33,776 nt of DNA. Origin: a candidate division WOR-3 bacterium. GTDB lineage: Bacteria; Hydrothermota; Tepidihabitantia; SM23-42. The position numbers and the translations under genes were made by a program. The stretch lies in assembly GCA_037446995.1 (NCBI GenBank), contig JBBIHN010000001.1:1-33776 (forward strand), read 5' to 3'. Below, piece after piece: positions 1,810 to 23,765 of the stretch. Position 1 is the first letter of the stretch, and each line of letters begins with the position of its first letter. Below the pieces are notes generated by a model that was not told the DNA's origin, did no database searches, and saw nothing but the letters and a program-made list of their open reading frames with translations.

Positions 1810-1842
1810 AAAAAGATTCATCAGAGCCCGAGCGGATTATCC

Positions 1843-5262: not shown

Positions 5263-5407
5263 ACTGAAATATTTTTAATTTCTCGTAAATGTGATTTTGA
5301 GATAGAAGGTTTTATAGGAGACACTGTTCTGCTTCAGATGAATCTTGACAAACGGTCATATGGGAATAAGGTGGAAGAAAGGAGTCAGAAATGGATGAGA
5401 AGCGGCG

Positions 5408-7076: not shown

Positions 7077-9481
7077 AAATAGGGATTGCGGCCGATATCC
7101 CAAAAGAGCGCATTTTTCAAAACGTTAGGAAACGCGATGGGTCACAGGTCGCTTTTGACCGGTCGAAGATATCGAACGCAATCTATCTGGCGGCAAAGGC
7201 GGTCGGCGGCGATGATCGAACTCTTGCCGAGAAACTCGCTGATGAGGTGGTTCTTTTTCTATATACCTTAAAGGGTGATCGGGTTCCCGAAGTCGAGGAG
7301 ATCCAGGATGCCGTGGAAAAGGTTCTGATCGAAAACGGTCATGCCCGTACTGCCAAAGGCTATATTCTCTACCGCAAGCAGCGCGAAATTCTTCGCCGGA
7401 AGCAGCTTCTGGAGAAAGAACCCGAAGAAAGGGATACAACCGACTATGCGCTGTTCGTGCGGACATCTGACGATGACTTCGTTTCCTGGGACCGTTCCCG
7501 TATCATCAAGGCGCTTCAGAACGAAACCGGCCTGGATTTGAACCGCGCCGAAAAAATCGCGGCGGAGACCGAGGAGACCATTTTGAACTCGAATGTTCAT
7601 CTTGTTTCATCGTCGCTGATACGGGAAATCGTCAATGTCAAATTGATCGAACACGGGTTGGAAAGCTCAAGGCTGCGTCATATCCGCCTGGGTATCCCCC
7701 TTTACGATGCCGAAAAAATAATACTTTATGCTAATCGCGAAAACGCCAACATACCGCATAATCCCGAGGCAACCAATATGACAATTGCCGAGACGGTCAA
7801 GAAACAATATATGTTGAGCGAGGTCTTCAGCCGCGAAGTCGCCGATGCCCATATCCGGGGCGACATACATCTGCATGATCTGGGTTTTGGCGACCGCCCC
7901 TATTGCTCCGGTCAATCGCTCGAATATGTGAAGAAATTCGGATTGAATCTGCCTAATGCATTATCAATCGCCCGGCCGGCAAAGCACGCCGATACAATGC
8001 TTGCTCATATGGTCAAATTTTCGGCGGCCCTGCAGGGGCATTTTGCCGGCGCGATCGGCTGGGACGCGGTCAATATCTTTTTTGCTCCTTTCCTGGTCGA
8101 TATGAACGACCGGGAAATCCATCAGCTCGCCCAGATGATGGTCTTTGAATATTCGCAGCAGTCGGTTGCCCGGGGCGGCCAGGCGATTTTTTCGGACCTG
8201 AACCTGTACTGGGAAATCCCCAAGCATTTCCGCAATGTTGATGCGATCGGCCCGGGCGGCGAATACACCGGCAAAAAATACCGCGACTATGCCGGCTACT
8301 CACAGAAATTCGCCTGGGCGCTCTTTGACGTCTACATGGACGGCGACGGCACGGGACGGCCTTTCTTCTTTCCGAAACCGCTGGTTCATATTACCGAAGA
8401 TTTTTTCCGAACTCCGGGTTGGGAGGACTTTCTTAATCACATCGCTGATGTCAGTTCAAAACGCGGCAATACCTACTATGTCTTCGACCGCGGAGAAACC
8501 GCAAAAATATCCGAATGCTGCCGGCTTTCGTTCAAACTCGACGAAAACGATCTGGCCGACGCCAATACACCATGGAAAATGCGCTATTCTGCCCTGCAGA
8601 ACGTAACCCTTAACCTTCCCCGGGCCACCTACGAGGCAGACCATGATGACGAAATCCTTTTCCGGAAGATCGATGAACTCCTCGAGTACGCGGTGAAAGC
8701 GCATATTCAGAAGAAAGCATTTATCGAAAGAATAATATCGCTTAAAGCCGATGGTCCACTCGCTCTGTTGACCATGGAACGGGACGGCGAACCATATTTG
8801 CGATTGCACCGAGCAACTTACCTGATTGGACTGCTGGGGCTGAATGAGCTGGTTCAATATCATACCGGAAAACAGATGCACGAGAGCGAATCAGCGATCC
8901 GATTTGGTTTACGGGTATTGGCTTACCTTTACCTGCGCATCAAAGAACTGTCCCGTAAGTATCATATGCATCTGGTCATGGAACAAACCCCGGCCGAATC
9001 CACCGCATACCGTTTTGCGCGGCTGGACCTCGAACACTATAATCAACAGACGTTACCGATAATCAAGGGCGATATCACAGCCAATTCCGCCTACTATACT
9101 AATTCCACTTATCTTAATGTCGGAATACCGCTTGACCCGATCGAACGGGTAAAAACCGAAGGCAAATTTCATGATATGATCGAAGCCGGCGCTCTGACGC
9201 ATGTCTGGCTTGGCGATGCCCAACCGCCCAAGGAATCGATAGCGAATTTCGTCGTAAAAACCTTCCGTCATACCAGGAATGCCCAGATCGCGTTTTCGCC
9301 AGAATTCACGACTTGCAACGGCTGTTTCCGCACGGGCCGCGGGATAAAGGATAAATGTGAATACTGCGGGAGTAGGGACATCGATCACATTACGCGGGTT
9401 ACCGGCTATTTCACGAAAGTCTCGGGATGGAACAAGGGTAAGAAGGCCGAGCTGAACGACCGGTATCGATCCCCGATGTAG
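7055..9481 (+). CDS. nrdD: Anaerobic ribonucleoside-triphosphate reductase (class III, NrdD) with an N-terminal ATP-cone plus a second degenerate ATP-cone
   Basis: 808 aa. ATP-cone 1 is VRKRDGSQVAFDRSKISNAI...YILYRKQR. A second cone-like segment is FVSWDRSRIIKALQNETGL. The C-terminus has a Cys cluster (CNGCFRTGRGIKDKCEYCGS) and a glycyl-radical loop (ITRVTGYFTKVSGWNKGK). It overlaps the nrdR stop by 22 nt. Confidence 0.95.
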   Translation: MEERTTVKIGIAADIPKERIFQNVRKRDGSQVAFDRSKISNAIYLAAKAVGGDDRTLAEKLADEVVLFLYTLKGDRVPEVEEIQDAVEKVLIENGHARTAKGYILYRKQREILRRKQLLEKEPEERDTTDYALFVRTSDDDFVSWDRSRIIKALQNETGLDLNRAEKIAAETEETILNSNVHLVSSSLIREIVNVKLIEHGLESSRLRHIRLGIPLYDAEKIILYANRENANIPHNPEATNMTIAETVKKQYMLSEVFSREVADAHIRGDIHLHDLGFGDRPYCSGQSLEYVKKFGLNLPNALSIARPAKHADTMLAHMVKFSAALQGHFAGAIGWDAVNIFFAPFLVDMNDREIHQLAQMMVFEYSQQSVARGGQAIFSDLNLYWEIPKHFRNVDAIGPGGEYTGKKYRDYAGYSQKFAWALFDVYMDGDGTGRPFFFPKPLVHITEDFFRTPGWEDFLNHIADVSSKRGNTYYVFDRGETAKISECCRLSFKLDENDLADANTPWKMRYSALQNVTLNLPRATYEADHDDEILFRKIDELLEYAVKAHIQKKAFIERIISLKADGPLALLTMERDGEPYLRLHRATYLIGLLGLNELVQYHTGKQMHESESAIRFGLRVLAYLYLRIKELSRKYHMHLVMEQTPAESTAYRFARLDLEHYNQQTLPIIKGDITANSAYYTNSTYLNVGIPLDPIERVKTEGKFHDMIEAGALTHVWLGDAQPPKESIANFVVKTFRHTRNAQIAFSPEFTTCNGCFRTGRGIKDKCEYCGSRDIDHITRVTGYFTKVSGWNKGKKAELNDRYRSPM

Positions 9482-9567
9482 AAAAGCGCTTTTTCGAAAC
9501 GCTTCGAAATAGAATCCTTCCAAGAATGTCGCTTTCTGTGAATAATCGATTGAATGAAACATCACAA

Positions 9568-9595
9568 TTGACTGCATTTTGAATTTTCGTATAAT
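9568..9595 (+). promoter_or_regulatory. Sigma-70-type promoter upstream of the basic micro-ORF
   Basis: TTGACT (9568-9573), a 16-nt spacer, then TATAAT (9590-9595). Confidence 0.45.
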
Positions 9596-9620
9596 TCAAC
9601 CAGAAAGGAGGTAACATTTT

Positions 9621-9716
9621 ATGCCCTGCGGAAGAAAGCGAAAGCTCAAGAAGATAAAGCGTCACAAATTGAAGAAACGCCGCAAAAGAGATCGCCATAA
9701 GAAGAAATTAAGATAG
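9621..9716 (+). CDS. 31-aa highly basic micro-protein, bS22-like (AURKAIP1/COX24-C-like) candidate small ribosomal protein
   Basis: It is not in the ORF track because it is shorter than 60 aa. The ATG at 9621 is preceded by AAAGGAGG (9604-9611). The translation is MPCGRKRKLKKIKRHKLKKRRKRDRHKKKLR, ending at TAG 9714-9716. From memory, the RKRK-x-KK-x-K-HK-x-KK pattern resembles mycobacterial bS22 (about 33 aa). A near-consensus promoter lies about 25 nt upstream. Confidence 0.55.
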   Translation: MPCGRKRKLKKIKRHKLKKRRKRDRHKKKLR

Positions 9717-10475
9717 TTTTCTCATAAGTACGCCGCGCTTCGTGGTTTTGAAAAAATCAATTATTTCGGCAATCTTCGCCTCATGCGCTTGCTCGCCGAG
9801 TTCAGCAAGCGTTTTTCTTAAGGGACGGACGGAGCTGAATATCCGACGATAAATCGTCTTCAAAGAGACGATCTCGGCGTCGGTCATACGATTTTTTTTC
9901 AACCCTTTCACATTTACGCCCACAATCCGGGCGCGATTGCCCGCCGCGAGCAGAAAAGGTGCAAGATCCTTGTTCAAATACGACTTTGCTCCAAGCATTG
10001 CCATCCGGCCGATACGGCAGAACTGGTGAATGCCGCAAAGTCCTCCGATATTCACGTAATCATCAATTATTACGTGCCCGCCAAGCTGAGAACCGCTGGC
10101 GATGATAACATCATTTCCGATGACTGCATTATGGGCGACATGAACATAGGTCATTATGTAATTGCGATCGCCGATAATGGTTTTCGCGTCGGTACCGGTC
10201 GCACACGAGATCGTCGCGTATTCTCGGATTATATTGTGATTGCCGATTACGCAGAATGATCTTTCCCCCCGATAATGATAATCTTGCGGTTCTATTCCGA
10301 TCTGGACGCCGCCACCAATCAAATTGTGCGATCCTATAATCGAACCGTTGCGGATGATTGTATTATGTCCGATCGTCGTACCCTTGCCGATTTTGACATC
10401 GGCTTCGATTATTGTGAACCGACCGATGCTAACTCCAACATCAATATCGGCTTGTTTGCTGATGCGGGAAAACAC
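9708..10475 (-). CDS. lpxA: Acyl-ACP--UDP-N-acetylglucosamine O-acyltransferase
   Basis: 255 aa. It has left-handed beta-helix hexapeptide repeats and a C-terminal helical domain (NVKGLKKNRMTDAEIVSLKTIYRRIF). It lies immediately downstream of fabZ, the conserved arrangement. Confidence 0.92.
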   Translation of the reverse strand: MFSRISKQADIDVGVSIGRFTIIEADVKIGKGTTIGHNTIIRNGSIIGSHNLIGGGVQIGIEPQDYHYRGERSFCVIGNHNIIREYATISCATGTDAKTIIGDRNYIMTYVHVAHNAVIGNDVIIASGSQLGGHVIIDDYVNIGGLCGIHQFCRIGRMAMLGAKSYLNKDLAPFLLAAGNRARIVGVNVKGLKKNRMTDAEIVSLKTIYRRIFSSVRPLRKTLAELGEQAHEAKIAEIIDFFKTTKRGVLMRKLS

Positions 10476-10483
10476 GGACCGAC

Positions 10484-10903
10484 TTATAGCTTCACCATTG
10501 CCATGACCGTCGCCTCGCAGGCGAGTTCATCGATAACCTTTGCCCGGCCGTTGACTCTGACGATATTACCGCGGTCATGAACGATCTCTGCCTCCAGCAC
10601 AAGCACATCGTCGGGACGCACTACCCGACGAAAACGGGCATGATCTATGCCCATAAACAAAGGTATCGCACCGGGCGCGCGGCGTAAAACCATTATCGCA
10701 CTCAACTGGGCGATCGCCTCGACGATAAGAACACCGGGCATTATTGGTTCCCTGGGAAAATGTCCGGCAAAATAGAATTCATCCGGGCGAACCCGACGCC
10801 GACCGGCAATCCGGTTCTCGCCAATCTCACAGACTTCATCGACAAAAAGAAAGGGCGGACGATGTGGTATGATCCGCATTATCTCTTCGGTATTCATGAT
10901 CAT
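10484..10903 (-). CDS. fabZ: 3-hydroxyacyl-ACP dehydratase FabZ
   Basis: 139 aa with IPHRPPFLFVDEV ... GHFPREPIMPGVLIVEAIAQ, the hot-dog fold signature. Confidence 0.95.
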   Translation of the reverse strand: MIMNTEEIMRIIPHRPPFLFVDEVCEIGENRIAGRRRVRPDEFYFAGHFPREPIMPGVLIVEAIAQLSAIMVLRRAPGAIPLFMGIDHARFRRVVRPDDVLVLEAEIVHDRGNIVRVNGRAKVIDELACEATVMAMVKL

Positions 10904-10907
10904 GCTC

Positions 10908-11792
10908 CTATTCTTCGATGATCTTCGTTACATTACTGGGCTTTAAAAGACTATTACGGCAGTTTCTGAGATCGGAAACATCTTTGACCTGGCAGCCGAT
11001 CGAGCCGATTTGCACGGCACTTCCCCGATAACCGTGGCAGTCTGATCCGCCGGTCATCACTAGTCCGTTCTTGATCGCGAGTTCATAGAACCGCTGGCGG
11101 TCGTGGAGGCTGTGTTCGGGATGCCAGACCTCAATACCGAGGCATCCCTCCATGATCAGCTGATATATTACCGATTCAAAGCGCAGTATCCCGGGGTGGG
11201 CGATCACCGGAACACCTTTGCATTCTTTGATCAACGCGATTACGACGTGCGGGTGCACGTCTTTTTTGGGCTCATAATATGGTCGCCCCTGCCCTAGATA
11301 CCGGGCAAAGGCTTCGTTCGACGATTTTGCATAACCGTTTTCGATCAGCACCTCGGCAATATGAGGACGCCCCAATGAACTTCCCTCGGCATATATCTTT
11401 ATTTGCTCGAATTCGATTTTGATGCCGTCATTATTGAGATGATTCACTATGCGTTTCACCCGCTCCAGACGATGTTGTTTGAAGCCGTCAAGGTATTCAA
11501 GCAAATTACCGTTATCGCAGCTGATGTAATAACCCAGAATATGCACGTCGAGACTACCCAGATTCGAGCTCATCTCCACCGCCGGGATCACCTCGATCGT
11601 ATCGGCGGCAATCGACAAAGCCTCGGGAACACCCGAAATCGTATCATGATCGGTTATTGACACGGTTTTCAACCTGGCCCCTTTGGCCATCTTGATTATC
11701 TCGTCGATCGAGTATGAACCGTCCGAATGATCGGAATGGATATGAAGATCAGCTTCGTGTTGATTCGAGCCTGAATGTAACAACGAGTTCAA
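10908..11792 (-). CDS. PHP-domain metal-dependent phosphoesterase (TrpH/YciV-like)
   Basis: 294 aa with DLHIHSDHSDGSYSIDEII ... VSITDHDTISG ... IAHPG ... GGSDCHG, the PHP histidine/aspartate motifs. Confidence 0.85.
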   Translation of the reverse strand: MNSLLHSGSNQHEADLHIHSDHSDGSYSIDEIIKMAKGARLKTVSITDHDTISGVPEALSIAADTIEVIPAVEMSSNLGSLDVHILGYYISCDNGNLLEYLDGFKQHRLERVKRIVNHLNNDGIKIEFEQIKIYAEGSSLGRPHIAEVLIENGYAKSSNEAFARYLGQGRPYYEPKKDVHPHVVIALIKECKGVPVIAHPGILRFESVIYQLIMEGCLGIEVWHPEHSLHDRQRFYELAIKNGLVMTGGSDCHGYRGSAVQIGSIGCQVKDVSDLRNCRNSLLKPSNVTKIIEE

Positions 11793-11801: not shown

Positions 11802-12626
11802 TTACGGCGTTTTGCAACTCAGACCAAGATCATGACCGACATCTTCAATGATCTTCTCGTCGATAAGTTCTTTCTTCAATAAGAACCCCTCGAGCAAGGC
11901 ATTATCGCAGACCGCATTTATAGTTCGTGGTATCCCTCGCGTATAGACGAAGATCCTCTGAAGCGCCTCGCGGCTAAAAAGGGGACGGGTGCAGCCGGCA
12001 ACCTTGAGGCGATGGATGATGTAGTTGGCTGCGGCCTTTTCATCGAGCGCTTCAAGCACGCAGCGCACCGCCACGCGCTGATACAACGGCGGATCAAGCT
12101 TCAGATAATCTTCCATCTCCGGCAATCCGAACAGTATGAAATTCAGGAGTTTTCCCCGTTCGGATTCAAGGTTCAGCAAACCCCTTATCTCTTCCATTAT
12201 CTCCTTGCGTTGCAACATATTTGCTTCGTCGATTAGGATAACCACTTTCTTCTTCTTGCCGGTCAAATCCAGCAGGCGATGATAAACGGCGGTTATGATA
12301 TCGATTTTGTTCTCGGAATCCATCGGCGTCTCGAGCATCAACGCGATCTTTTTCAAAAACCACAGAGAAGTTATTTCCGAATGAATGATCACCAGCAAAG
12401 TCGCCTCAATACCAAGCGCGATAAACTGATCCAGAAGACGCCGCGAAAGAGTAGTCTTTCCGGTGCCGATATCCCCGATCAGAAGGCCAAGTCCTTTTTC
12501 AGTCTCGACCGAATGCAGCATCTTAACGAGCGCTTTGGAGTGTTGTGGTGAATCATACCAGAACTTCTCATCGGTAGTGAAACTGAATGGATGTTCTCTT
12601 AATTTATAGAAAGATTCGTAGCCCAT
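11802..12626 (-). CDS. ExeA/GspA (MshM)-like AAA ATPase, paralog 1
   Basis: 274 aa. The N-terminus FYKLREHPFSFTTDEKFWYDSPQHSKAL matches the ExeA pattern (FFGL..PF......f.y.s..H..AL). Walker A is GDIGTGKTT and Walker B is VVILIDEAN. It starts 4 nt after the upstream TPR gene. Confidence 0.85.
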   Translation of the reverse strand: MGYESFYKLREHPFSFTTDEKFWYDSPQHSKALVKMLHSVETEKGLGLLIGDIGTGKTTLSRRLLDQFIALGIEATLLVIIHSEITSLWFLKKIALMLETPMDSENKIDIITAVYHRLLDLTGKKKKVVILIDEANMLQRKEIMEEIRGLLNLESERGKLLNFILFGLPEMEDYLKLDPPLYQRVAVRCVLEALDEKAAANYIIHRLKVAGCTRPLFSREALQRIFVYTRGIPRTINAVCDNALLEGFLLKKELIDEKIIEDVGHDLGLSCKTP

Positions 12627-12630
12627 TTAT

Positions 12631-14436
12631 CTAAAGGTAAGTTATCTTCGATTTCTTAACCTTCACACTTTCCGCCGGCGGTGCAGGTGACGGAGGCGGC
12701 TTCGATGATTGATCGACTTTGCCCTCCCTTTGAAGTTGCGCAGAGAAACGGTTTTTGATCTCGTTTATTTTTCTGGTCAGCTCGGGAACCGTTTTATCGA
12801 TCTTGTAGGCATTCATATACGATCTCAGGGCTTCCTTGAGATTTCTCTTTTTTTCAAAACAATTGCCGAGCAAAAAATGAATGCCGAAATACTCGCTGGC
12901 CGGCCGGCCCGTTATCCCGAGACCATCGTTGAGAACACGCAGGCCTTCGTCAACCTTGTCTTTTTCGAGAAAACACGAGCCGATCATCTCCATTGCCTTG
13001 AGTCTCAGATCCTGGTCCTTCGCCGCCATCTCGAATTCCTCGATCGCCTCCTGGAACAAGCCCATTCCCTTATAGGCAACTCCGAGATCATAGCGCGACT
13101 TGAAATCGCCCTCGCCGATCGATTCAAATACTTCACGCCGGAACTGCGAGATCAATCCGTCGATGCTTTGCAGGTTCTCCGACTTCTGATCCTGTACGAT
13201 CTCGGTACGTAAGACCTCGCCAAGATCGATGAAATCCTTTGGTTGCTCAAAGGCCGCGATCATCTCCTGGGCAATCTGGTTCGCCGGCTCAATGCTCAAA
13301 ACCTTGCGATAAACTTCACTGGCCTCGCTTTTTGCGTCACGGCGACTAAGCGATTCGGCAAGGTTCAGCAAGGCATCAACCTGCAGGGCATTATCGTCCA
13401 TGGCACCTGCGATCTCAACCATAAGCTGACGTGACTTAAGATCAAAAGGACGAAGATCGGCAATGCGTTTGTTAAGTTCGAGAGACTTTCCGTATTCTCG
13501 GCTCTTAAGTGCTTCGGCGGCCGCGCCCCGGAAGCAGTCGATCGCCTCATCTTCATGACCGAGGTTCAAGTATACATCTCCCAACTCAACTGCCCTATCG
13601 ATTTCTAATTGCGCTTTGGCCACCGGTTCTGCGGCCGGTTCTTCGACCGGCCCGACTTCATCCTTCAGCAACTCGGCAACCTCCGGCGAGACCAGATCGT
13701 CAATCTTTTTGCATTCGGCTTTGTCGCCGACTTCCGGCTCGGCTTCTTCAACCGCCCCGGCCGACGCCTTAGCTTCAACCACTATTTCGGGCTTTACCGA
13801 CACCGGCTCCGGGATGACTTCCTCTTTCTCCTCGACGACTTCCTTCTCAATTTCGACCGTTTCCGGCGTCTTAGAGACCAGGGTTTCGCGGAACTTCTCC
13901 TGTTGGGTTTCTATTTCCTGTGCCTCTTTGCGTAATTCCTTACCTTCTTCTTTCTTGCCAACCTTCTCATAGATCGCCGAGATCGTTTCCAGAATCTTAG
14001 GATTGTTAGGCACCAGTTCTTTGATTATATTGTAAGCGCGCAGGGCGTCTTCCATGGCGTTATCTTTCATCTTACGCTCGGCGTATTCAAGATAGCAGCT
14101 TACCGCTTCGCCTTTTTGGTCGAGTTCTTTGTGGAGATCACCGAGCAGCTCGTAGACATTTGCACGTTCTTTGTTGAGACGCAGGATCTTCTTGCACAAT
14201 GCGACCGCGTTCGGATAATAGGTCTCTTCCCGGAACACGCGGGCGCCTTTCTCATAGACATCAAGCGCCTCTTCTTTTCGGTTGACTTTTATGTAGAGAT
14301 CGCCCAGTTTGTTGAACAGCGAACCATCGGTGGTGAATTCAGCTAAAGATTTTTCTAGTTCTTCGATTGCCTTTCTTAGATCGCCTTTTGCTTCATACTC
14401 GGCGACTTTTCTCTTTACTTCACCGGCTTCCGGCAT
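12631..14436 (-). CDS. Long signal-less TPR protein, paralog 1 (TPR, acidic/Pro-rich linker, TPR, basic tail)
   Basis: 601 aa. It has TPR-like helical repeats at both ends and a Glu/Pro/Val-rich linker at about aa 165-278. There is no N-terminal signal peptide (MPEAGEVKRKVAEYE). Its ATG overlaps the TAA of the upstream ATPase (TAATG at 14434-14438). Confidence 0.8.
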   Translation of the reverse strand: MPEAGEVKRKVAEYEAKGDLRKAIEELEKSLAEFTTDGSLFNKLGDLYIKVNRKEEALDVYEKGARVFREETYYPNAVALCKKILRLNKERANVYELLGDLHKELDQKGEAVSCYLEYAERKMKDNAMEDALRAYNIIKELVPNNPKILETISAIYEKVGKKEEGKELRKEAQEIETQQEKFRETLVSKTPETVEIEKEVVEEKEEVIPEPVSVKPEIVVEAKASAGAVEEAEPEVGDKAECKKIDDLVSPEVAELLKDEVGPVEEPAAEPVAKAQLEIDRAVELGDVYLNLGHEDEAIDCFRGAAAEALKSREYGKSLELNKRIADLRPFDLKSRQLMVEIAGAMDDNALQVDALLNLAESLSRRDAKSEASEVYRKVLSIEPANQIAQEMIAAFEQPKDFIDLGEVLRTEIVQDQKSENLQSIDGLISQFRREVFESIGEGDFKSRYDLGVAYKGMGLFQEAIEEFEMAAKDQDLRLKAMEMIGSCFLEKDKVDEGLRVLNDGLGITGRPASEYFGIHFLLGNCFEKKRNLKEALRSYMNAYKIDKTVPELTRKINEIKNRFSAQLQREGKVDQSSKPPPSPAPPAESVKVKKSKITYL

Positions 14437-15257
14437 TATTCAAATTTCAAACCAAAATTGGATACAACTTTTTCGATTATTGATTCGTCGATATTCTGTT
14501 TACGTTGAAAATAGCCTTCGAGCAAAGCATTGTCGCAGGTTATATTTACGAGCCTGGGCCGGCCGTCGGCATAACGACATACCAAATCGACCGCCCTGGG
14601 AGAGAATAACTCGCGGGCTGCGCCGGCGATCGTCAATCGATGGTTGATATAAGACCTAATCGTATCGCTGCCCATCGGCTTCAACTTAACCTTCACCGCA
14701 ATACGCTGGTATAGAGCGCGATTGGTGGATAAGAAGCTCTCCAGGTCCGGTAAACCGCTGAGCACGAACGAGATCAACCGTGTATCGGCGATTTCGAGAT
14801 TGAGCAATCCCCTCATCTCCTCAAGGATCTCGGGACTTCGGATCTTATTTGCCTCGTCAATGATGATCACCGTTTTCTCATTGCGTCGGTATATCTCATT
14901 GAGCCTCTGCGATATCCGGTTGATAACCTCAGTAGTCGAACTCCCGATATCCCGCGCGCCGATCAGGTTCGCGATTCGCGAAAAAAGCCATCCGGGAGCA
15001 AATTCAGAGTGAGTAAGAACAATCAAACCCACCTGATAGTTTTCGGCGCCATACAGCTCACTTAGTATCTTTCTCACCAATGTCGTCTTACCCGTGCCGA
15101 TTTCACCTAACAGCACGGCCATACCTCTGGTGCCGCGGGCCGCGTGGATCAGATATTCCCTCGCCAGAGCGTGCTGCGGTGAGTTGAAGTAGAATTTCGG
15201 GTCAGGATGATTGGTAAAAGGCTCGAATTTCAAACCATAGAATTCCTGATATCCCAC
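14436..15257 (-). CDS. ExeA/GspA (MshM)-like AAA ATPase, paralog 2
   Basis: 273 aa with FYGLKFEPFTNHPDPKFYFNSPQHALA. Walker A is GEIGTGKTT and Walker B is TVIIIDEAN. It is collinear with paralog 1 over its full length. Confidence 0.85.
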   Translation of the reverse strand: MGYQEFYGLKFEPFTNHPDPKFYFNSPQHALAREYLIHAARGTRGMAVLLGEIGTGKTTLVRKILSELYGAENYQVGLIVLTHSEFAPGWLFSRIANLIGARDIGSSTTEVINRISQRLNEIYRRNEKTVIIIDEANKIRSPEILEEMRGLLNLEIADTRLISFVLSGLPDLESFLSTNRALYQRIAVKVKLKPMGSDTIRSYINHRLTIAGAARELFSPRAVDLVCRYADGRPRLVNITCDNALLEGYFQRKQNIDESIIEKVVSNFGLKFE

Positions 15258-15270
15258 TTAACCTCCCATT

Positions 15271-17211
15271 TTAGAGAAAAGCAATATTTTCATCGCTCTT
15301 GTCTTCAATACCACCGAAATCTTCAGGAATGTTCTCAACTCTTCTTGTTTCGCGACCTACTTTCTCGACCGGCACGGTGAAATCCTCGATCAACGGCGGC
15401 TTGTCATCTGCTTCTGACTGGAATCCGTCAAAAGACGGAACTCGTTCGGGTTGCGGATCCATGTTCGCAGAAACCGCCGGTACTGGCTCGGGCGAAAATT
15501 CCCTGGGCGATTCTAACAATTGAGGTGGCTCACGATGTTTCTCCTCGAATGCCGGCTCCGGTTCGACCGGTGGCGTTTCTTTGTCGACGGTAACTTCAGT
15601 CCTTCTTGCCTCCTCAAGGACCGGCTCTTTACCGCCGAGCAGCGAGTAGATCTCGCGCACGTCCTTGTAATTGGGGTTGAGACTGATGATCCGTTCGATC
15701 TCGCGCATCGCATTGTCAAAATCTCCCATCCCCTCATACGCCGCCGCCAGCAAATAGCGCAGTTCCGTTTTTTTATCTTCGCTCAAATCTTCATATAACA
15801 ATGACGGCGCGATCGCTTTCATCGCTTCATTGTAGCGTCCAAGCCGGATTAGCGATGAACCATATATTTCAAGGGAATGCGGCCATGTATGCTTCAACTG
15901 CTTCAGATCGGCGACATAAGTAAGAGCGGCTTCGTAGAGCTGTGATTCCAGCGCCAGCCTGGCAGCGTGCAGGAGTTTGCCCTGATCCTCTTCACGCCAT
16001 TGAATCTTGCTGCGGAAATCATCAAATTCCTTTGCCAACTCAAAGCTCGGCGCCGGCGCAGTCTCGGCCTGATCGAGCAGGAACTCAATATCTGCGATCT
16101 GACCTTCCAGTTGTGGTATATCCGTTCCTTGATCGGTCGGCGCTTCATCAGGCATCGTGGCATCAGCGGCTGCCTTGAAACCTTCGATATCCTTTCCAAG
16201 ATCTTCAAAGATCTCCATTCCCTGAATATCACTGCCCGGCATAAGATCAGCCGTCGACGGCGGTGAGGCATCCGCAACAACGGGGTCATGTTCAATCACT
16301 GATTCAACATCGTCAGCCGGTTTCCTGTCACCCGCCGGCGGCGCGCTTTCGAGAACCGCACGGTCTTCGACTGGTTTCGGTTCCGGCTTCGGTGCCGCCG
16401 GTACCGGAGCCCCACCCTGCAACTCGTTGATTTTATTGATCGCCTCCAGATTACTGGGGTCAATCTCGGCGATTCGATTGAGAACCTTAATCGCCTCATC
16501 GATCTCGCCGCCAGCGATCAAATCCTGCACCGCCTTATTGAACTCAACAACCGCTTCGTCCTTGGAACCGATCTCATAAAGTAAATTACCCAACTCAATG
16601 CGACTCTTTGGATCAAGCTCTTCGCCGCCATCAGCGTTCGGCATCAAACCATTGACCTCATTGATCAGATTCTCATCCTGCGCTTCTTCGGCCATGTTTT
16701 TCAACCGGACCAGTTCTTCGTAAGCAATGACTCCCTGATTCAAAGAATACAAAATTTTGATGAAGGATAGACGCAGGGCGAGATTATTCGGCTGCATATC
16801 GATCACTTTGCGAAGACCGCCGATAAGAATGCTGTCTTTCTTGTTGTCTAATGCCCAGGAACAGGACTCCAGCATTTTCAATATCGCATGATTGGGCAAC
16901 CCATACAGATGGTAGAGGTCGGCAAGACGCGAGAATACTTCTTCTTTGGTACAATCAATCTTGACAATCTTTTCAAGACACATTATCGCATCGGCGTATT
17001 GGTTCATATCCCCGTACTTCGTGCAGGCGCTTTCATAACGCTGGATCGCCTCAGTATTATTGCCCAGTTTTAGTGCAATGTCGCCGGAAAGCTCAAGCGC
17101 CTTCGCATGATTCGGATTCTCGTTCAAAATGCGTCGCAAAATGATCTGAGCTTTTTCGATCTTGCCTTCGAGAATGTATTCGCGGCTTCTGTCGAGCACG
17201 TCTACTTCCAT
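15271..17211 (-). CDS. Long signal-less TPR protein, paralog 2 (TPR, Pro/Asp/Ala-rich linker, TPR, acidic disordered tail)
   Basis: 646 aa with an N-terminal TPR block, a low-complexity linker at about aa 264-392 (GGAPVPAAPKPEPKPVEDR...), a second TPR block, and a roughly 100-aa Pro/Glu-rich tail ending in ENIAFL. There is no signal peptide. Confidence 0.8.
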   Translation of the reverse strand: MEVDVLDRSREYILEGKIEKAQIILRRILNENPNHAKALELSGDIALKLGNNTEAIQRYESACTKYGDMNQYADAIMCLEKIVKIDCTKEEVFSRLADLYHLYGLPNHAILKMLESCSWALDNKKDSILIGGLRKVIDMQPNNLALRLSFIKILYSLNQGVIAYEELVRLKNMAEEAQDENLINEVNGLMPNADGGEELDPKSRIELGNLLYEIGSKDEAVVEFNKAVQDLIAGGEIDEAIKVLNRIAEIDPSNLEAINKINELQGGAPVPAAPKPEPKPVEDRAVLESAPPAGDRKPADDVESVIEHDPVVADASPPSTADLMPGSDIQGMEIFEDLGKDIEGFKAAADATMPDEAPTDQGTDIPQLEGQIADIEFLLDQAETAPAPSFELAKEFDDFRSKIQWREEDQGKLLHAARLALESQLYEAALTYVADLKQLKHTWPHSLEIYGSSLIRLGRYNEAMKAIAPSLLYEDLSEDKKTELRYLLAAAYEGMGDFDNAMREIERIISLNPNYKDVREIYSLLGGKEPVLEEARRTEVTVDKETPPVEPEPAFEEKHREPPQLLESPREFSPEPVPAVSANMDPQPERVPSFDGFQSEADDKPPLIEDFTVPVEKVGRETRRVENIPEDFGGIEDKSDENIAFL

Positions 17212-17229
17212 TGGAAATTATATACTATT

Positions 17230-18732
17230 TCATAATTTTGTCAAGAAGATATTTTCGATTTCAGCATAGAGGCTTTCTTCTTGTTTTCCGAGAGAATCAA
17301 GCTCGGATTTCATGGTTTTGTTAAACTCGCCGTCAATTATAGAATTTAGGTTAATCAACACATTGACCCGCGCGCCGAAAAAAGCGCTTCGGAACGAGTA
17401 GAGAGCAACGCCGACGTCGGATATTGCGTTCTTCAATCCTTTTTCCGCGACGATCCGGGCGTGTGGATACATGCCGACGACGTTACGGCAAACATCGAAC
17501 GGAACCTGAGCCGCATACTTATAGGCTTTCTGGATCGCGCTTTCCCGTTCTTTCTTCTCGGTCTCATCGTTGTCCGGCAGCTTGAACGCGGCGATCACCT
17601 GATCGAACGCGTTCTTATCTTTGTCGATCAGTTTATAAAAATCGTAGGCCTGGAGTTTTAAAACACCGTGCATCTCGCGCAATTCCTTATCCTTGGTCTT
17701 ATGTTCGGTTATCCCGGTCACCATCGCCAGCAAAGCCGATCCGAGCGCGGCCTGCAGCGCGGCGACACTGCCGCCGCCTGGCGTCGGTTTGGACAAAGCC
17801 AGCTCATGGAGAAAATCCATAATTGACTGTTTGTCCTTACCCCGGAGTTTATATTCAAGGATTTGGTCGGTATTGAAACGGTCGAGCTGTAGGTAATAGA
17901 TCGCCGTGTCGATCAAAGCCTGTTCCGGAACTAAGCCGACAATTTCCGATTCCTTGATGCTGACTCCGTGGCGTGCCGCTTCCCGCCTGGCGGTTTCAAA
18001 TACGCGGGCAAGCGGTGTTTTGGTGTAATTAGTCATATTACATGACACCTGAGCCCGATTTTCGGCTTTCAGTTGAAAACCCAGCGATTTGACAAACTGA
18101 AACCCGCCGCTCTGACTGCGTATTGCGTTGGCTATTTTCTGGGCGATCGCGACATCCGACGTGTTTAAATTCATATTGAACGCGATCAGTGGAAACCGAG
18201 CGCCGACCACGGTCGCGCCCGCGGTCGGGTGTATTTTCGCCGCGCCGAAATCTGGTCTTTTGTCCGGATTTGTTTCGATCTCGGCGCGCAAGCCTTCGAA
18301 TTCGCCCTTACGTATGTCGGCAAGATTCTTGCGGTCAGGCCGCGACGCCGCGTCCTCGTAAAGATACACCGGTATCTTCAATTCCTCGGCGATCCTTTTA
18401 CCCAGCCGCTTGGCAAGCTCCACGCACTCGCGGGTCGTTACGTTGCTGATCGGTACAAAGGGGATGACATCGGTCGCGCCCATACGCGGATGTTCGCCTT
18501 TATGCTTGGTGAGGTCGATCAACTCGGCGGCTTTTTTCACGCCCCGAAAAGCCGCCTCGAGAACCGCCTCAGGCTCGCCGATAAAAGTCACCACTGCCCG
18601 ATTGTGATCGGCATCCATTTCCTTATCAAGTAATTCAACGCCGGCGCTCGTAATATCATTGATGATAAGCTCGAGTCTGGCCGGATCCCGTCCCTCGCTG
18701 AAATTCGGTATGCACTCAACTAATTTTTCCAT
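17230..18732 (-). CDS. ftcD: Bifunctional glutamate formimidoyltransferase / formimidoyltetrahydrofolate cyclodeaminase
   Basis: MEKLVECIPNFSEGRD is the typical formiminotransferase N-terminus. The C-terminal part, LSKPTPGGGSVAALQAALGSALLAMV, is the cyclodeaminase signature. The likely start is the ATG at 18732, preceded by AAGGAAAGG. The 28-codon extension in the track (to 18816) lies inside hutI. Confidence 0.9.
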   Translation of the reverse strand: MEKLVECIPNFSEGRDPARLELIINDITSAGVELLDKEMDADHNRAVVTFIGEPEAVLEAAFRGVKKAAELIDLTKHKGEHPRMGATDVIPFVPISNVTTRECVELAKRLGKRIAEELKIPVYLYEDAASRPDRKNLADIRKGEFEGLRAEIETNPDKRPDFGAAKIHPTAGATVVGARFPLIAFNMNLNTSDVAIAQKIANAIRSQSGGFQFVKSLGFQLKAENRAQVSCNMTNYTKTPLARVFETARREAARHGVSIKESEIVGLVPEQALIDTAIYYLQLDRFNTDQILEYKLRGKDKQSIMDFLHELALSKPTPGGGSVAALQAALGSALLAMVTGITEHKTKDKELREMHGVLKLQAYDFYKLIDKDKNAFDQVIAAFKLPDNDETEKKERESAIQKAYKYAAQVPFDVCRNVVGMYPHARIVAEKGLKNAISDVGVALYSFRSAFFGARVNVLINLNSIIDGEFNKTMKSELDSLGKQEESLYAEIENIFLTKL

Positions 18733-19912
18733 AGATGACCTTTCCTTTTTTGATTGTATAACGGACCATATCCTCGCCGAAATTATACGGAATCTTATAA
18801 TAGTCATCAACATCACAGATCACCAGATCGGCCTGTTTGCCGACTTTGATGCTGCCGACTCTATCGAGCAGACTCAATGCCTGGGCCGCGTTGTAAGTCG
18901 CGCCGATAATTGCGTTCTCAACCGGCAAACGAAAAACGATGCAGGCGATCGCAATAATCTTGAGCATTGAATAGATCATGCATGAACCAGGATTGTAATC
19001 CGAAGCGATCGCGACCGGTGATCTTTCCTTCAAGAAACTCTCGATGTCGGGTTTTTTGTCGATCTGAAGAAAAAATGCCGTGCCGGGTAACAGAGTCGGG
19101 ATCACGCCGGCACGGTTCATTGCTTTGATCGCCGCGCCTGATGTGTATTCCAGATGATCGGCCGACACGCAACCCATTTCCGCGGCCAGGCCGGCCGCGC
19201 CGATATCCGAGAGCTCGTCGGCGTGGATTTTCAGGCCGAATCCTAGATCGCGTGCCCGGCTCAGCACTTTTCTGCTTTCCTCGACATTAAAGGCGATCTC
19301 ATCACAAAAAATATCGCAGAACAATGCCAGTTTATTTTTTGCCACTTCGGGGAGAATTTCCCGGCAGACCCGTTCAATGTATTGGGCGCGCTGCATATTC
19401 CTTGGGATGGCGTGCGCCAGATAGGTCGGGACGATATCAAGTACTGAATCGTTTTTCAATCTACTGATGACCTTAAGCATTTTGATCTCGGTCTCCGTGT
19501 CCAGACCGTATCCGCTCTTGCACTCGACCGTGGTTGTGCCGTGGCAGATGAATTTTTCCAGCCGTCTTTTCCCGTTTGAGTAAAGCTCCGCTTCGCTGGC
19601 TTGCCTGGTCATTGCCACGGAACTTGCAATGCCGCCGCCGGATCTCGCGATCTCTTCATAGCTTTTACCGGCGACGCGCATGGCGAATTCATTTTCGCGC
19701 GAACCCGCGTAGACAAAATGCGTATGGGAATCGATCAAGCCAGGCATAACCACGCAGCCCGAAACATCGATGATCTCGGTTTCATCGCCCGGCTTGATAT
19801 CGCCGATCCCGGATATCAGGTCATTGTCGATCAGTATCGATGCATTTTTGACCATGCCCAGACCATTTTCCATGGTCAGTATTTGCGCCGCGTTCTTATA
19901 TAAGATCGACAT
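18716..19912 (-). CDS. hutI: Imidazolonepropionase
   Basis: 398 aa of the amidohydrolase fold, with VMPGLIDSHTHFVYAGSR ... LKIHADEL ... SADHLEY ... ASDYNPGS. It sits directly upstream of ftcD, which is the next pathway step. Confidence 0.92.
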   Translation of the reverse strand: MSILYKNAAQILTMENGLGMVKNASILIDNDLISGIGDIKPGDETEIIDVSGCVVMPGLIDSHTHFVYAGSRENEFAMRVAGKSYEEIARSGGGIASSVAMTRQASEAELYSNGKRRLEKFICHGTTTVECKSGYGLDTETEIKMLKVISRLKNDSVLDIVPTYLAHAIPRNMQRAQYIERVCREILPEVAKNKLALFCDIFCDEIAFNVEESRKVLSRARDLGFGLKIHADELSDIGAAGLAAEMGCVSADHLEYTSGAAIKAMNRAGVIPTLLPGTAFFLQIDKKPDIESFLKERSPVAIASDYNPGSCMIYSMLKIIAIACIVFRLPVENAIIGATYNAAQALSLLDRVGSIKVGKQADLVICDVDDYYKIPYNFGEDMVRYTIKKGKVIYGKIS

Positions 19913-20604: not shown

Positions 20605-22707
20605 TTATGGGCGTGGCATTAGCCGCGCCTTTGTCTCCGGCGTCACCGGAAAACCCAGTTGCTCGGCGCGGATAAGATCGTCCCGGGCCTTTTGATCTTC
20701 GCCGATCATATGCCGGGCCAGGGCGCGGTTAAAATAGGCATCGGCGTAATCGGGCCGGATCCGCAGGGCTCGATCATAGTCAGCTATCGCTTTTTCGTAC
20801 CGGGCGACGATCATATATAAATTGCCACGATTGTTCAGGGCTTCGGCAAAATCCGGTTTGAGCCTTATCGCGTTATCATAGTCGATCAGGGCGAGTCTAT
20901 TGTCGCCGATCATCCTGTAGGCCATGGCGCGGTTATAATAGGCCGTGTAAAAATAGGGATTGATCTCCAACGCCTGAGAATAGTCGGCGATCGCCCGGCC
21001 GAAGTCGCCGCGCACAAACCATATATCGCCCCGGTTGACATAAGTCTCAGGACAATAGGAATCAAACACCAGCGCGCGTTCATAGTCACTCAGCGCCAGT
21101 TCATGAAAGCCCAGCCGCGCATAAGCAAAACCGCGATCCAGATAGGCAATGTCTAATGATGCGTCCAGGCTTAAGGCATGATCCAGTTCCGCGATTGCCG
21201 CTTCGTAACGGCCCAGACGATTATAGGTCGCGCCCCTTCCCGCATAGGCGATCGCCATATCCATCTTTATGCTCAATGCGCGATCAAAATCCGCCAGTGC
21301 CCGTTCATAGTCCGCCAGTTTCTCATAGGCCATAGCGCGGTTGTAATAAAGCAATTCATATTCAGGATCGACCTCCATGGCGCTCTCATAATCCTGTATC
21401 GCGCGCGCGTACTGCCCCAGCAAACTGTAGACGCGACCCCGATTATTAAGCGCCAGCGAACTCTCGGGATATCGCCGCAAAACATAGTTCCAGAGTGTCA
21501 AACTATCTTTCCAAACGCGGCAAAGACCGCGGGATTGCATTGAAAAAATGGCAAGAACGATAACGACCGTCGCGGCAATCCCGATCTTCACTGCCCGCGC
21601 CCGGCCAATGAATCCGTTCCATAACCGGCGTCCGGCGTGAACGATCAGAAAGGCAATTCCGATCGACGGAATATAGGTGTATCGGTCAGCCGCCATGGCG
21701 TGGCCGGCAATGGGGATCATTTGGCTGACCGGCAAAGCGGTCACCAGATAGAAAAAAGTACCGAAAATCAACGCGCGGCGGTGGTGCATCGGTAACGCGA
21801 ATATCAAAGCCAAACCCGCGGCTAAGATCAGGGGTGCGAAATAGAAAGCGACCGGCATCGAATCTTCAAAACCGGCCGGATACGGGTAAAAAGGCGATAA
21901 CCCCAGAGGCACGACCGTTTTCGCGGCATACACGACAAGATTCCTGGTCCCGAGTATTAAATTACGCAGCAGATCAAATGCCGGCGTGTCGGTCTGCCGT
22001 ATCTGGGTGTGAAAATTTATCGCGACAAAAGGCAAGGCGAGTGCGACCATAATCAAGGCAAGCCGTAGGCTTGCGCGCCGAAGCCGGCCCTCGAGCAGAT
22101 ATTCGGTCAGTAACAGCACGCCGGGAAGCGTCAGCGCGATCGGTTTGGCGAGTATTGCCAGCAAATACAAAGCATTTACCGCGTAAGCAGCAAATCGCCG
22201 TTCCCGAAAACGAATAAAGACGGCCCAGGCGGCGAAGAAAAAAAGGCCGCAAAGCACGTCTTTGCGCTCGGTCACCCAGGCGACCGATTCAACGCGCATG
22301 GGATGCAGTCCGAAGAATAAGGCGATCACCACGGCCGCCCAGAAATCGCGCAGCAGAAGGCGCATCAACGCGAACAACAGAAGCACATTAATGATATGCA
22401 GCAGGACGTTAGCCAGGTGAAAGAAAACCGGATTCAAACCGAACAACCGGTTCTCGACGGAAAATGACAATATAGTCAGGGGCACGTATGGTCCGCTTTG
22501 GGGATTGGTGAAAATCCGCAGAATTGAGGCCGGGTTCAGATCGCGAATGCGCGGGTTGTTGGTGATCAATTCCGAATCGTCCCAATTCGTAAAATCGTTG
22601 GCCAGCGCCGGCATAAAGGCAAAAAACACGGCGAGAACGATCAAAATATTGACGACGATCGCGCGGTAGCACGGCTTCACGATTTCCATTATAACAGGCA
22701 CCGCCAT
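20605..22707 (-). CDS. Polytopic membrane GT-C-type (PMT/TMTC-like) glycosyltransferase-family protein with a C-terminal TPR array
   Basis: 700 aa. The N-terminal roughly 400 aa hold many hydrophobic helices and the motif FTNWDDSELITNNPRIR. The C-terminal roughly 290 aa are regular 34-aa TPRs (AIQDYESAMEVDPEYELLYYNRAMAY and similar). Confidence 0.8.
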   Translation of the reverse strand: MAVPVIMEIVKPCYRAIVVNILIVLAVFFAFMPALANDFTNWDDSELITNNPRIRDLNPASILRIFTNPQSGPYVPLTILSFSVENRLFGLNPVFFHLANVLLHIINVLLLFALMRLLLRDFWAAVVIALFFGLHPMRVESVAWVTERKDVLCGLFFFAAWAVFIRFRERRFAAYAVNALYLLAILAKPIALTLPGVLLLTEYLLEGRLRRASLRLALIMVALALPFVAINFHTQIRQTDTPAFDLLRNLILGTRNLVVYAAKTVVPLGLSPFYPYPAGFEDSMPVAFYFAPLILAAGLALIFALPMHHRRALIFGTFFYLVTALPVSQMIPIAGHAMAADRYTYIPSIGIAFLIVHAGRRLWNGFIGRARAVKIGIAATVVIVLAIFSMQSRGLCRVWKDSLTLWNYVLRRYPESSLALNNRGRVYSLLGQYARAIQDYESAMEVDPEYELLYYNRAMAYEKLADYERALADFDRALSIKMDMAIAYAGRGATYNRLGRYEAAIAELDHALSLDASLDIAYLDRGFAYARLGFHELALSDYERALVFDSYCPETYVNRGDIWFVRGDFGRAIADYSQALEINPYFYTAYYNRAMAYRMIGDNRLALIDYDNAIRLKPDFAEALNNRGNLYMIVARYEKAIADYDRALRIRPDYADAYFNRALARHMIGEDQKARDDLIRAEQLGFPVTPETKARLMPRP

Positions 22708-22724: not shown

Positions 22725-22748
22725 GGGGTCAAATCTGGACATTGGACA
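22725..22748 (+). repeat. 24-bp repeat, copy B (perfect inverted partner of copy C)
   Basis: GGGGTCAAATCTGGACATTGGACA. It covers the stop codon of the Y1 transposase-like gene. Confidence 0.9.
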
Positions 22749-23727: not shown

Positions 23728-23741
23728 ATAAATTTCATAAA

Positions 23742-23765
23742 TGTCCAATGTCCAGATTTGACCCC
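23742..23765 (-). repeat. 24-bp repeat, copy C (inverted)
   Basis: TGTCCAATGTCCAGATTTGACCCC is the exact reverse complement of copy B. It ends 1 nt before the comM stop codon. Confidence 0.9.

Follow-up and report, generated by a model that had tools for sequence, protein, structure and literature searches.

Two anciently duplicated pairs of an SgmX-family TPR scaffold and an ExeA-type ATPase in a candidate division WOR-3 bacterium, and a possible C-terminal hook between them

What might a cell do with two copies of a gene pair that joins a long tetratricopeptide repeat (TPR) protein to an ATPase of the type known from secretion and pilus loci, when no secretion or pilus gene lies nearby? The question is raised by a stretch of DNA of 33,776 nucleotides (nt) from a candidate division WOR-3 bacterium (GenBank assembly GCA_037446995.1, contig JBBIHN010000001.1, positions 1 to 33,776), which as a whole is called the window below. 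Four consecutive genes on its minus strand encode TPR2 (15271-17211; 646 amino acids, aa), ATPase2 (14436-15257; 273 aa, with a GTG start), TPR1 (12631-14436; 601 aa), and ATPase1 (11802-12626; 274 aa). A preliminary description, made from the letters alone, had read this module as an undescribed two-component ATPase–scaffold system. The gene order, sizes, and junctions that it gave all match the open reading frames (ORFs) and the sequence read directly: a 13-nt gap between TPR2 and ATPase2, which holds a GGGAGG Shine-Dalgarno sequence ahead of the ATPase2 GTG; a 1-nt overlap (TAATG) between ATPase2 and TPR1; and a 4-nt gap between TPR1 and ATPase1. We also found no secretin, pilin, GspB, or exosortase gene near the module, as it had stated, in the window plus an extra 3 kb of the 36.8-kb contig.

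A possible answer comes from two proteins of other bacteria. SgmX, of Myxococcus xanthus, is a 14-TPR effector of MglA-GTP that is found at the leading pole and is essential for extension of type IVa pili (T4aP) by recruiting PilB (PMC7519303, PMC7668184, PMC9811614, PMC11580455). Bd2492, of Bdellovibrio bacteriovorus, is a polar protein that interacts with MglA and RomR and is required for the invasion of prey by way of type IV pili (T4P; PMC3983030). Here, we propose, with a probability of about 0.55, that each pair in the window would consist of a polar, cytoplasmic SgmX-like scaffold and a cognate AAA+ switch that acts on it by way of a short motif at the scaffold's C-terminus—termed the hook below—and that the two pairs arose by an ancient duplication.

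The scaffolds and their C-terminal hook

TPR1 and TPR2 are only ~25% identical, with the similarity confined to the N-terminal block. Family hidden Markov models (HMMs) were trained on 49 full-length partner proteins, the first 230 residues giving an N-terminal model and the last 260 a C-terminal one, with WOR-3-like genomes excluded. TPR1 scored 164 bits with the N-terminal model (residues 10-185, collinear) and 157 bits with the C-terminal model, collinear through the last residue. The scores of TPR2 were weaker (114 and 66 bits), and those of an unrelated control TPR protein from the same window (20605-22707, 700 aa) were 17 and 15 bits. The curated SgmX model NF052243, an equivalog_domain model that is Myxococcus-specific, has a cutoff of 1800 bits, which is reached neither by TPR1 (64 bits) and TPR2 (22.9 bits) nor by a Nitrospirae partner protein (303 bits); it aligns TPR1 residues 423-557 to model positions 873-1010, which is the MglA-binding end of SgmX (TPR12-14).

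In an AlphaFold2 model of TPR1, confident helical-repeat domains (residues 1-188, 271-397, and 425-570) are accompanied by an acidic disordered linker (189-270) and a disordered C-terminal tether of 28 residues (574-601). The middle block (271-397) resembles the repeats of the N block in HMM comparison, with no specific match to the FrzS-binding region. TPR2 is laid out in the same manner: it has an N-terminal and a C-terminal TPR block, linkers that are disordered and acidic/proline-rich, and, at its C-terminus, a long tether that is also disordered. The common architecture noted earlier for the two TPR proteins is thus borne out by the family HMMs and the AlphaFold model, and so is the lack of signal peptides; transmembrane segments are lacking as well (maximum Kyte-Doolittle 19-residue means of 0.73 and 1.19). 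Taken together, the HMM scores, the NF052243 alignment, and the TPR1 model identify TPR1 as a shortened SgmX-family scaffold (54% identical to the partner protein of WOR-3 locus L001) and TPR2 as a diverged paralog. As judged from sequence, both have the N block, the C block, the hook in its wider form [KR/N]-[IV]-x-[YF]-[LIV]-COOH, and the downstream ExeA-type ATPase that characterize a broadly drawn SgmX family.

The hook, [KR]-[IV]-[SGT]-[YF]-[LIV]-COOH, ends 79 of 82 partner scaffolds and 5% of the other ORFs in the same loci. Counted back from the C-terminus over those 79 proteins, position -1 is L, V, or I in 78, -2 is Y or F in 79, -3 is S, G, or T in 75, -4 is I or V in 79, and -5 is K or R in 74; a basic cluster usually precedes the motif. 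SgmX ends in RKVGYL. TPR1 ends in KKSKITYL, comprising the hook KITYL-COOH (12634-12648, minus strand) and a basic KKSK cluster before it, and TPR2 ends in DENIAFL, with the hook NIAFL-COOH (15274-15288, minus strand). The latter is an acidic variant of the WOR-3-like scaffolds called ‘type 2’ below, which end ...E[ED]NI[TSA]F[LV] without the basic cluster. The motif is unmentioned in the SgmX papers (PMC7519303, PMC7668184, PMC9811614, PMC11580455). In the AlphaFold2 monomer model of TPR1, the hook lies on the disordered tether, undocked from the TPR domains of its own chain (predicted local distance difference test, pLDDT, of 33-49 for the tail). Intramolecular autoinhibition by hook–TPR contact, which we also considered, is unsupported by this model.

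The hook is strictly tied to the presence of the ATPase. An exhaustive search that was independent of the ATPase, using the last 200 residues of TPR1, returned 1,805 cluster representatives (E <= 1e-10), and the best 150 of these divide into 64 with the hook and 86 without it. The hook-less relatives are long TPR proteins that stop just past the conserved domain end (...VD..FRDV..R...L). Their loci were collected by a metagenome scan seeded by the tail-less group, plus two look-ups, and at least 250 nt of downstream sequence were required. No ExeA-like ATPase was found downstream of the tail-less relatives at any of these 73 loci, or on either strand in 481 kb. The sole ATPase match of the scan comes directly after its one recovered hook-bearing protein (L161, ...KKSKVSYL), and two hook-bearing proteins picked without regard to the ATPase (P0380 and P0410) are followed, 24-42 nt downstream, by an AAA_22 ATPase of 271-275 aa. 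In the ATPase-independent sample, the ATPase is therefore present downstream in 3/3 hook-bearing and 0/73 hook-less cases (Fisher exact, ~1.4e-5). Together with the 79 hooks among 82 partners, this co-occurrence is strong comparative evidence that hook and ATPase function together.

Two further arrangements were observed among these proteins. A large sister TPR family (L095-L176; P0364-P0485), mostly from soil metagenomes, comprises proteins of ~700-1200 aa that have an SgmX-type C-terminal domain and end after the same ...VD..FRDV..R...L segment; the hook is absent, and an adjacent ExeA-like ATPase was never seen. Locus L092 holds a type 1-like scaffold (8827-10644) with the basic hook RDKISYV. 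The next gene, beyond ~330 nt of non-coding sequence, encodes a C25 peptidase, and the only ATPase of the locus is an upstream type 2 copy. Some hooks may thus be served by an ATPase that is not adjacent or that belongs to another pair.

The ATPases, their orthologs, and their neighborhoods

ATPase1 and ATPase2 are 41% identical and collinear across 270 aa, and they match PF13401 (AAA_22) with 69 and 73 bits. Of the motifs described previously, the Walker A sequences (GDIGTGKTT/GEIGTGKTT) stand; the Walker B consensus ‘(I/V)IDEAN’ does not, as the motif reads LIDEAN in ATPase1 and IIDEAN in ATPase2. The ExeA-type N-terminus was recognized correctly, with Y3, F6, Y7, and F14 invariant in the ATPase alignment and P13 conserved at >=90%. 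Both proteins have an intact Walker A, Walker B, arginine-finger region, and sensor 2. Profile search found no further Pfam domain in these 273-274-aa proteins, and they have no transmembrane segment, the hydropathy maximum (1.73) falling within the AAA+ core. The closest solved folds to an AlphaFold2 model of ATPase1 (pLDDT 91.9) are archaeal/eukaryotic ORC/Cdc6, TnsC, and MuB, with template modeling (TM) scores of 0.65-0.75. A profile search of PDB sequences with the ATPase likewise returned TnsC (1e-8) and MuB (1e-3), with no ExeA-type structure among its matches. By predicted fold, the ATPase belongs to the ORC/TnsC/MuB initiator or ‘switch’ clade of AAA+ proteins.

This fold bears on one alternative, in which the hook would serve as a degron or sorting tag; the ATPase would then be an adaptor in scaffold turnover and would not switch scaffold activity. 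A basic cluster followed by a hydrophobic free C-terminus does resemble ClpX C-motif-2-type tags such as that of MuA, and a hook that sits on a disordered tether and strictly co-occurs with the ATPase would suit such a role. However, no protease gene is conserved beside the pair, and the ClpX/HslU unfoldases are far poorer matches to the ATPase1 model (TM ~0.47-0.48) than the initiators and switches. We consider this alternative very unlikely.

The nearest relatives of ATPase1 are in WOR-3 and TA06 (70-92% identity), followed by relatives in Cloacimonadota, Nitrospirota, and NC10 (53-60%). A scan for orthologs with one genome per species yielded 80 loci with 44-83% identity to ATPase1, among whose labels are WOR-3, FCPU426, Nitrospirota, Methylomirabilota, Myxococcota, Desulfuromonadales, Bdellovibrionota, Firestonebacteria, Goldiibacteriota, and Omnitrophota. 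Orthology is drawn from identities of 45-57% to ATPases of species genomes that include M. xanthus. The ortholog in M. xanthus is 48% identical; the ORF directly upstream of it is SgmX (NF052243, 2047 bits against the cutoff of 1800), and the gene after it is TamB-like. Because this ATPase sits directly after SgmX, it is MXAN_5765, and on sequence grounds ATPase1 is its ortholog. The MXAN_5765-type ATPase has been termed a ‘putative Sec system ATPase’ that ‘interrupts’ a TPR-tamAB cluster (PMC3983030). A lack of any tie to pili, as understood earlier, can thus no longer be maintained, since the protein encoded upstream of the orthologous ATPase is a T4P activator.

Several observations concern the ATPase genes themselves. 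Those of Myxococcota are longer (311-440 aa compared with ~274 aa elsewhere; for example L048 9965-10936, and L050, L059, L067, and L069), which reflects either a lineage-specific C-terminal extension or ORFs over-extended in DNA of high guanine-cytosine content. In Myxococcota genomes, the clustering also picked up spurious ORFs that run antisense to the ATPase gene. A reading of the module as a defense system was dropped, PADLOC having returned only sub-threshold generic AAA matches.

When all ORFs <=7.5 kb from the ATPase were clustered across the loci, the only universal families were the TPR partner (71 loci) and the ATPase itself. The end of the partner gene and the start of the ATPase gene are separated by a median of 15 nt, and TPR-then-ATPase is the sole adjacency conserved over at least 12 phylum-level labels. 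Other neighbors are lineage-specific: TamB/Omp85 in Myxococcota; MutL, MiaA, ScpA, and RluB in Desulfuromonadales; RadA in Nitrospirota; and a PHP-family protein in WOR-3-like lineages. The pair is therefore a real two-component module, as had been supposed. ‘Undescribed’ applies to it in part: the ATPase partner is functionally undescribed, but the scaffold belongs to the known SgmX/Bd2492 family.

Could the pair be a dispersed part of a classical ExeA system—GspAB of type II secretion systems (T2SS), MshMN of mannose-sensitive hemagglutinin (MSHA) pili, or a PEP-CTERM/exosortase system—encoded elsewhere in the genome? The Joint Genome Institute annotates the ATPases as ExeA/GspA, both align with TIGR03015 from end to end, and MshM–MshN is also an ATPase–TPR pair, dispensable for pilus production like MXAN_5765 (PMC4624765). 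Yet the TIGR03015 scores of 182.3 and 180.4 bits are well below the cutoff of 324.5, identity to genuine PEP-CTERM ATPases is ~29%, the GspA and PEP-CTERM references lie outside the clade, and the proteins have neither a transmembrane segment nor a peptidoglycan-binding domain. No T2SS, MSHA, or exosortase genes occur in ~90 loci; in particular, the 90 loci hold no GspE-type ATPase, and their sole secretin is PilQ, in Myxococcota. The preliminary description was thus right to set the module apart from such loci. Membership in T2SS and PEP-CTERM systems appears already largely refuted by these comparisons, and we regard the classical ExeA explanation as the least probable of those considered here.

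In 10 Myxococcota loci, sgmX is preceded at a distance of 4-7 kb by a same-strand gene for the T4aP secretin, pilQ, which scores 476-502 bits (cutoff 284). These loci are L038, L042, L043, L047, L048, L050, L056, L059, L068, and L081, with accC and other genes intervening, and sgmX-ATPase-tamB-tamA thus stands at the edge of a pil cluster in this phylum. The earlier remark that pilus genes are absent nearby is true of the window, but this is normal for the family, as pilQ is found within ~7 kb only in Myxococcota. Across related loci totaling 1.3 Mb, no homolog of GspE/PilB or MglA was found, with the MglA probe used as a search seed only.

The downstream neighbors suggest another explanation, in which the module regulates outer-membrane or envelope biogenesis (TamAB-type, or the lipid A/lipopolysaccharide machinery). 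In the window, a PHP-family phosphoesterase gene (10908-11792) begins 9 nt past ATPase1 and is followed by fabZ (10484-10903) and lpxA (9708-10475), all on the minus strand, with gaps of 4-8 nt in the PHP-fabZ-lpxA run. The pair and these genes thus follow one another at gaps of 4-9 nt. In Myxococcota, the pair is followed by TamB and Omp85/POTRA proteins in one putative operon (14 and 12 loci), bd2492 is cotranscribed with tamAB (PMC3983030), LptF/G lies upstream of the pair in L178, and ExeA itself acts in secretin assembly. These neighbors are lineage-specific, however, and MutL, RadA, MiaA, and ScpA replace them elsewhere. Moreover, scaffold and ATPase are both cytoplasmic, loss of sgmX specifically affects the extension of T4P (PMC7519303), and inactivation of the tamB-like mxan_5764 spares S-motility, which separates the two functions (PMC7668184). 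An envelope role of this kind is unlikely, although less so than the other two rivals set out so far.

A further possibility is a polar hub tied to chromosome organization, or an ATPase that loads onto DNA in the manner of ORC, TnsC, or MuB on a HubP/FimV-like scaffold. The best fold and sequence matches of the ATPase are indeed DNA-loading AAA+ proteins, the scaffolds have long acidic disordered linkers, MutL, RadA, and ComM are among the neighbors, and SMC or ScpA is encoded <=10 kb from the pair in 16/90 loci, including L003, L010, L017, L177, and loci of Nitrospirota and Desulfuromonadales. On the other hand, no DNA-binding domain was detected in either protein, the fold similarity is limited to the generic AAA+ core and lid, no chromosome phenotype has been reported for sgmX mutants, and SMC/ScpA are housekeeping proteins whose genes may belong to a conserved core synteny. 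We therefore rate this explanation as improbable, more so than an envelope role. The smc genes are in L003, L010, L005, L016, L019, and L041, and the scpA genes in L017, L058, L070, L072, L077, L078, L082-L084, and L177; the arrangements and lineages vary, and MutL, RadA, and ComM are recurrent neighbors too. This proximity may be either housekeeping synteny or a hint of a polar link to the chromosome.

Small genes on the opposite strand directly after the ATPase encode a PilZ-domain protein in L178 (7894-8280, minus strand) and a DUF6982 protein in L005 (10939-11370, minus strand), and a conserved unannotated ORF of ~231 aa lies on the opposite strand just downstream in 11 Nitrospirota loci (e.g. 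L028 10806-11501). These genes could be a link to signaling by cyclic di-GMP.

The module probably starts from its own promoter. A perfect sigma-70 consensus (TTGACA-16-TATAAT, 12/12) occupies 17217-17244 on the minus strand, where ~0.004 matches are expected by chance; TTGACA and TATAAT are also conserved ahead of TPR2 orthologs in the WOR-3 loci L007 and L008. Only 5 nt separate the end of the -10 element in the window from the TPR2 ATG, so that the messenger RNA would have no leader or almost none. No terminator-like site was found on the module strand down to lpxA. Promoter and lack of terminator together suggest an independent start for the module, separation from hutI-ftcD, and possible cotranscription with PHP-fabZ-lpxA; the PHP gene, at least, is probably cotranscribed with ATPase1. 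Upstream of TPR2 on the same strand are FtcD (17230-18816) and HutI (18716-19912). The profile scores of these two and of PHP, FabZ, and LpxA pass or come near to curated cutoffs, and the PHP protein matches the models for 3',5'-nucleoside bisphosphate phosphatase and RNase RNM, though below their cutoffs. PHP is a conserved downstream neighbor only in WOR-3-like lineages (8 loci).

The placement of the module in a histidine-catabolism gene string, which had been pointed out before, looks like lineage synteny. A functional link was rejected, since the HutI/FtcD synteny is confined to WOR-3-like lineages and the conserved promoter lies between ftcD and TPR2. An amidohydrolase gene (hutI here) and/or ftcD is directly upstream of the TPR gene in several WOR-3-like and related genomes too, at L003, L090, L091, and L092; in L090, the stop and start codons of the upstream gene and the TPR gene overlap, though a functional link is doubtful. 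Mobile or variable elements flank the conserved gene string of the window on both sides: at 328-6307, a DUF6531 (RHS-like) protein followed by three ORFs without family match and an rve integrase (5408-6307), and at 22729-23748, an IS200-like Y1 transposase homolog beside a ComM/Mg-chelatase-like gene (23767-25335). The TPR protein that served as control above (20605-22707, minus strand) has a hydrophobic N-terminus, is probably membrane-anchored, and has sub-threshold matches to TPR lipoproteins of the PilW, Tgl, and NlpI types.

Divergence of the two pairs and the proposed switch

The doubled arrangement is found elsewhere, as had been asked of it: a second ATPase gene lies directly upstream of the type 1 pair in the WOR-3 relatives L007 and L008 and also in L003/L004, L010, and L013. 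In a neighbor-joining tree, ATPase2 groups with those second copies, with L090/L091 (which have the type 2 pair only), and with L092. The type 2 clade so formed has bootstrap support of 77-84%, compared with 72% for a type 1 clade that contains ATPase1 and MXAN_5765; Escherichia coli GspA and two polysaccharide/PEP-CTERM ATPases fall outside both clades with 55% support. L088, the only match from Vibrionaceae (Photobacterium), comes from a Wza/Wzz/tyrosine-kinase polysaccharide locus and served only as an outgroup. Its use as an MshM reference was rejected, since it lies in a polysaccharide-export locus.

A recent tandem duplication was rejected in view of the identities of 41% between the ATPases and ~25% between the TPR proteins and of the recurrence of a separate type 2 clade in other genomes. 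Low paralog identity and a recurrent clade together indicate that the duplication is ancient. In the complete WOR-3 sequence CP070795.1 (L001), a type 2 ATPase can be read upstream of the type 1 pair for no more than its last ~85 residues (7841-8206), abutting a run of N. We do not take this ‘remnant’ as evidence of decay, as it may represent either a decayed second pair or an assembly or masking gap.

Positions D/E66, E74, D178 (D in 83/83), and D266 are acidic in type 1 ATPases and neutral in WOR-3-like type 2 ATPases. The change of the scaffold tail from basic to acidic runs parallel to this change of charge and fits insulated cognate pairs. The two pairs are probably insulated from each other, on evidence that is weak because L003a and L010a keep basic tails.

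The mechanism that we favor may be outlined as follows. The first gene of each pair would encode a multi-TPR scaffold of the SgmX/Bd2492 family, i.e. a polar effector of the small GTPase MglA that licenses T4aP extension, built of folded TPR blocks, disordered linkers, and a flexible tether ending in the hook. The second would encode a soluble AAA+ ATPase that is of ExeA type, falls in the initiator/switch clade, and has intact catalytic motifs. In its ATP-bound form, the ATPase would recognize the hook of its own scaffold, and nucleotide cycling would control the assembly state, localization, or turnover of the scaffold. Diverged hooks (KKSKITYL and DENIAFL) and diverged ATPase surface charges would keep the pairs insulated. 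Docking of the hook on the ATPase, polar localization, and the identity of the controlled machine are proposed by analogy, and by that analogy type IVa pili are the most likely machine.

A number of points weigh against this proposal. Inactivation of mxan_5765 had no effect on S-motility (PMC7668184), and transposon insertions in MXAN_5765-5761 caused no developmental defect (bioRxiv 10.64898/2026.08.28.747804); from these knock-outs, the ATPase is dispensable for the one SgmX function that was assayed. Bd2492 is reported without an intervening ATPase (PMC3983030). Outside Myxococcota, no pilus, MglA, or PilB gene adjoins the pair, and the literature that names WOR-3 with T4P or MglA is silent on whether WOR-3 organisms have them. 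The hook-bearing TPR1-like gene of L092 has no ATPase directly after it. Support in the neighbor-joining tree is moderate (55-84%), and the charge co-variation reflects only one or two events in evolution, with L003a and L010a (basic tails, N178) breaking the pattern. A bolder version of the same idea, in which a ‘hook-and-switch’ polarity module spans phyla and the duplicate, insulated pairs of WOR-3 control some envelope machine, whether in place of T4P or alongside them, is tentative and well short of an even chance, though better placed than any of the rivals weighed above.

The universality of the pairing, the hook, and the co-occurrence of hook and ATPase are not in the searchable literature and are new here, as is the ancient duplication into two diverged pairs. 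The preliminary description had correctly seen a genuine conserved ATPase–scaffold module outside T2SS, MSHA, and PEP-CTERM loci, and it had missed the tie to the SgmX family. This tie matters because SgmX is a central T4P activator in a major model organism, where the adjoining ATPase has been dismissed as an interrupting gene without phenotype. An unannotated gene pair thereby becomes a sharp hypothesis that is testable genetically in M. xanthus. Soluble ExeA/MshM-like ATPases gain a possible general role and, if hook and switch prove true, a general mechanism; a functional context is given to gene pairs annotated ‘TPR repeat protein’ and ‘AAA family ATPase’, of which uncultured phyla have thousands; and the doubled, diverged pairs of WOR-3 offer a natural experiment on how specific partners are for each other.

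Comparison with known systems

The closest relative is SgmX with MXAN_5765, which shares with the module an orthologous ATPase (48%); a TPR gene directly upstream on the same strand, encoding a cytoplasmic protein without signal peptide; a homologous N block; a C block matching the MglA-binding TPR12-14; and the hook (RKVGYL vs KITYL). SgmX is longer (1052-1060 aa, compared with ~600-650 aa for TPR1 and TPR2), and disordered linkers in the latter replace its middle TPRs, including the FrzS-binding region. The loci differ as well: tamB-tamA is downstream there and PHP-fabZ-lpxA here, where the module is doubled and no pil cluster is near. Bd2492, compared by published description, is a TPR protein of short length that is reported to share the synteny group, but it has no reported adjacent ATPase and is in an operon with tamAB.

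ExeA/GspA resembles the ATPases in its AAA_22 family and its N-terminal F-Y-x-L...P-F segment. It differs in having a transmembrane segment, a periplasmic peptidoglycan-binding domain, and GspB as partner, whereas the present proteins are soluble, of 274 aa, and paired with a TPR protein; no gspB or other T2SS genes are in the window. The XrtA/PEP-CTERM ATPase family (TIGR03015) is the best-scoring curated model for both ATPases, and its loci also hold a TPR protein. Its members differ in length (439 aa), in sequence (~29% identity), and in setting, being encoded among exosortase and polysaccharide genes; the exosortase, exopolysaccharide-export, and PEP-CTERM genes present around the reference ATPases are absent from the window. 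PrsT, the PEP-CTERM TPR lipoprotein, is not encoded adjacent to its ATPase, unlike the TPR scaffolds here.

Relatives of ORC, TnsC, and MuB are nucleotide-dependent assembly switches, and the extreme C-terminal peptides of MuA and TnsB engage MuB and TnsC, respectively. MuB–MuA and TnsC–TnsB, which include the closest solved folds, thus offer an analogy, and only an analogy, for docking of a C-terminal partner peptide on an initiator-clade AAA+ protein. They differ in that the module contains no transposase genes and in an identity of 13-18%.

In MshM/MshN, compared by description, a soluble ExeA-like ATPase is again encoded beside a TPR protein. There, the ATPase gene comes first and lies between the genes for the secretin MshL and the extension ATPase MshE of a pilus operon; no such msh-operon genes (MshL, MshE) are in the window or the related loci. 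MshM and MshN are dispensable for making pili and modify pilus-dependent behavior (PMC4624765). By this comparison, they would be the nearest functional analogue of the pairs described here, and their role parallels the mild phenotype of MXAN_5765.

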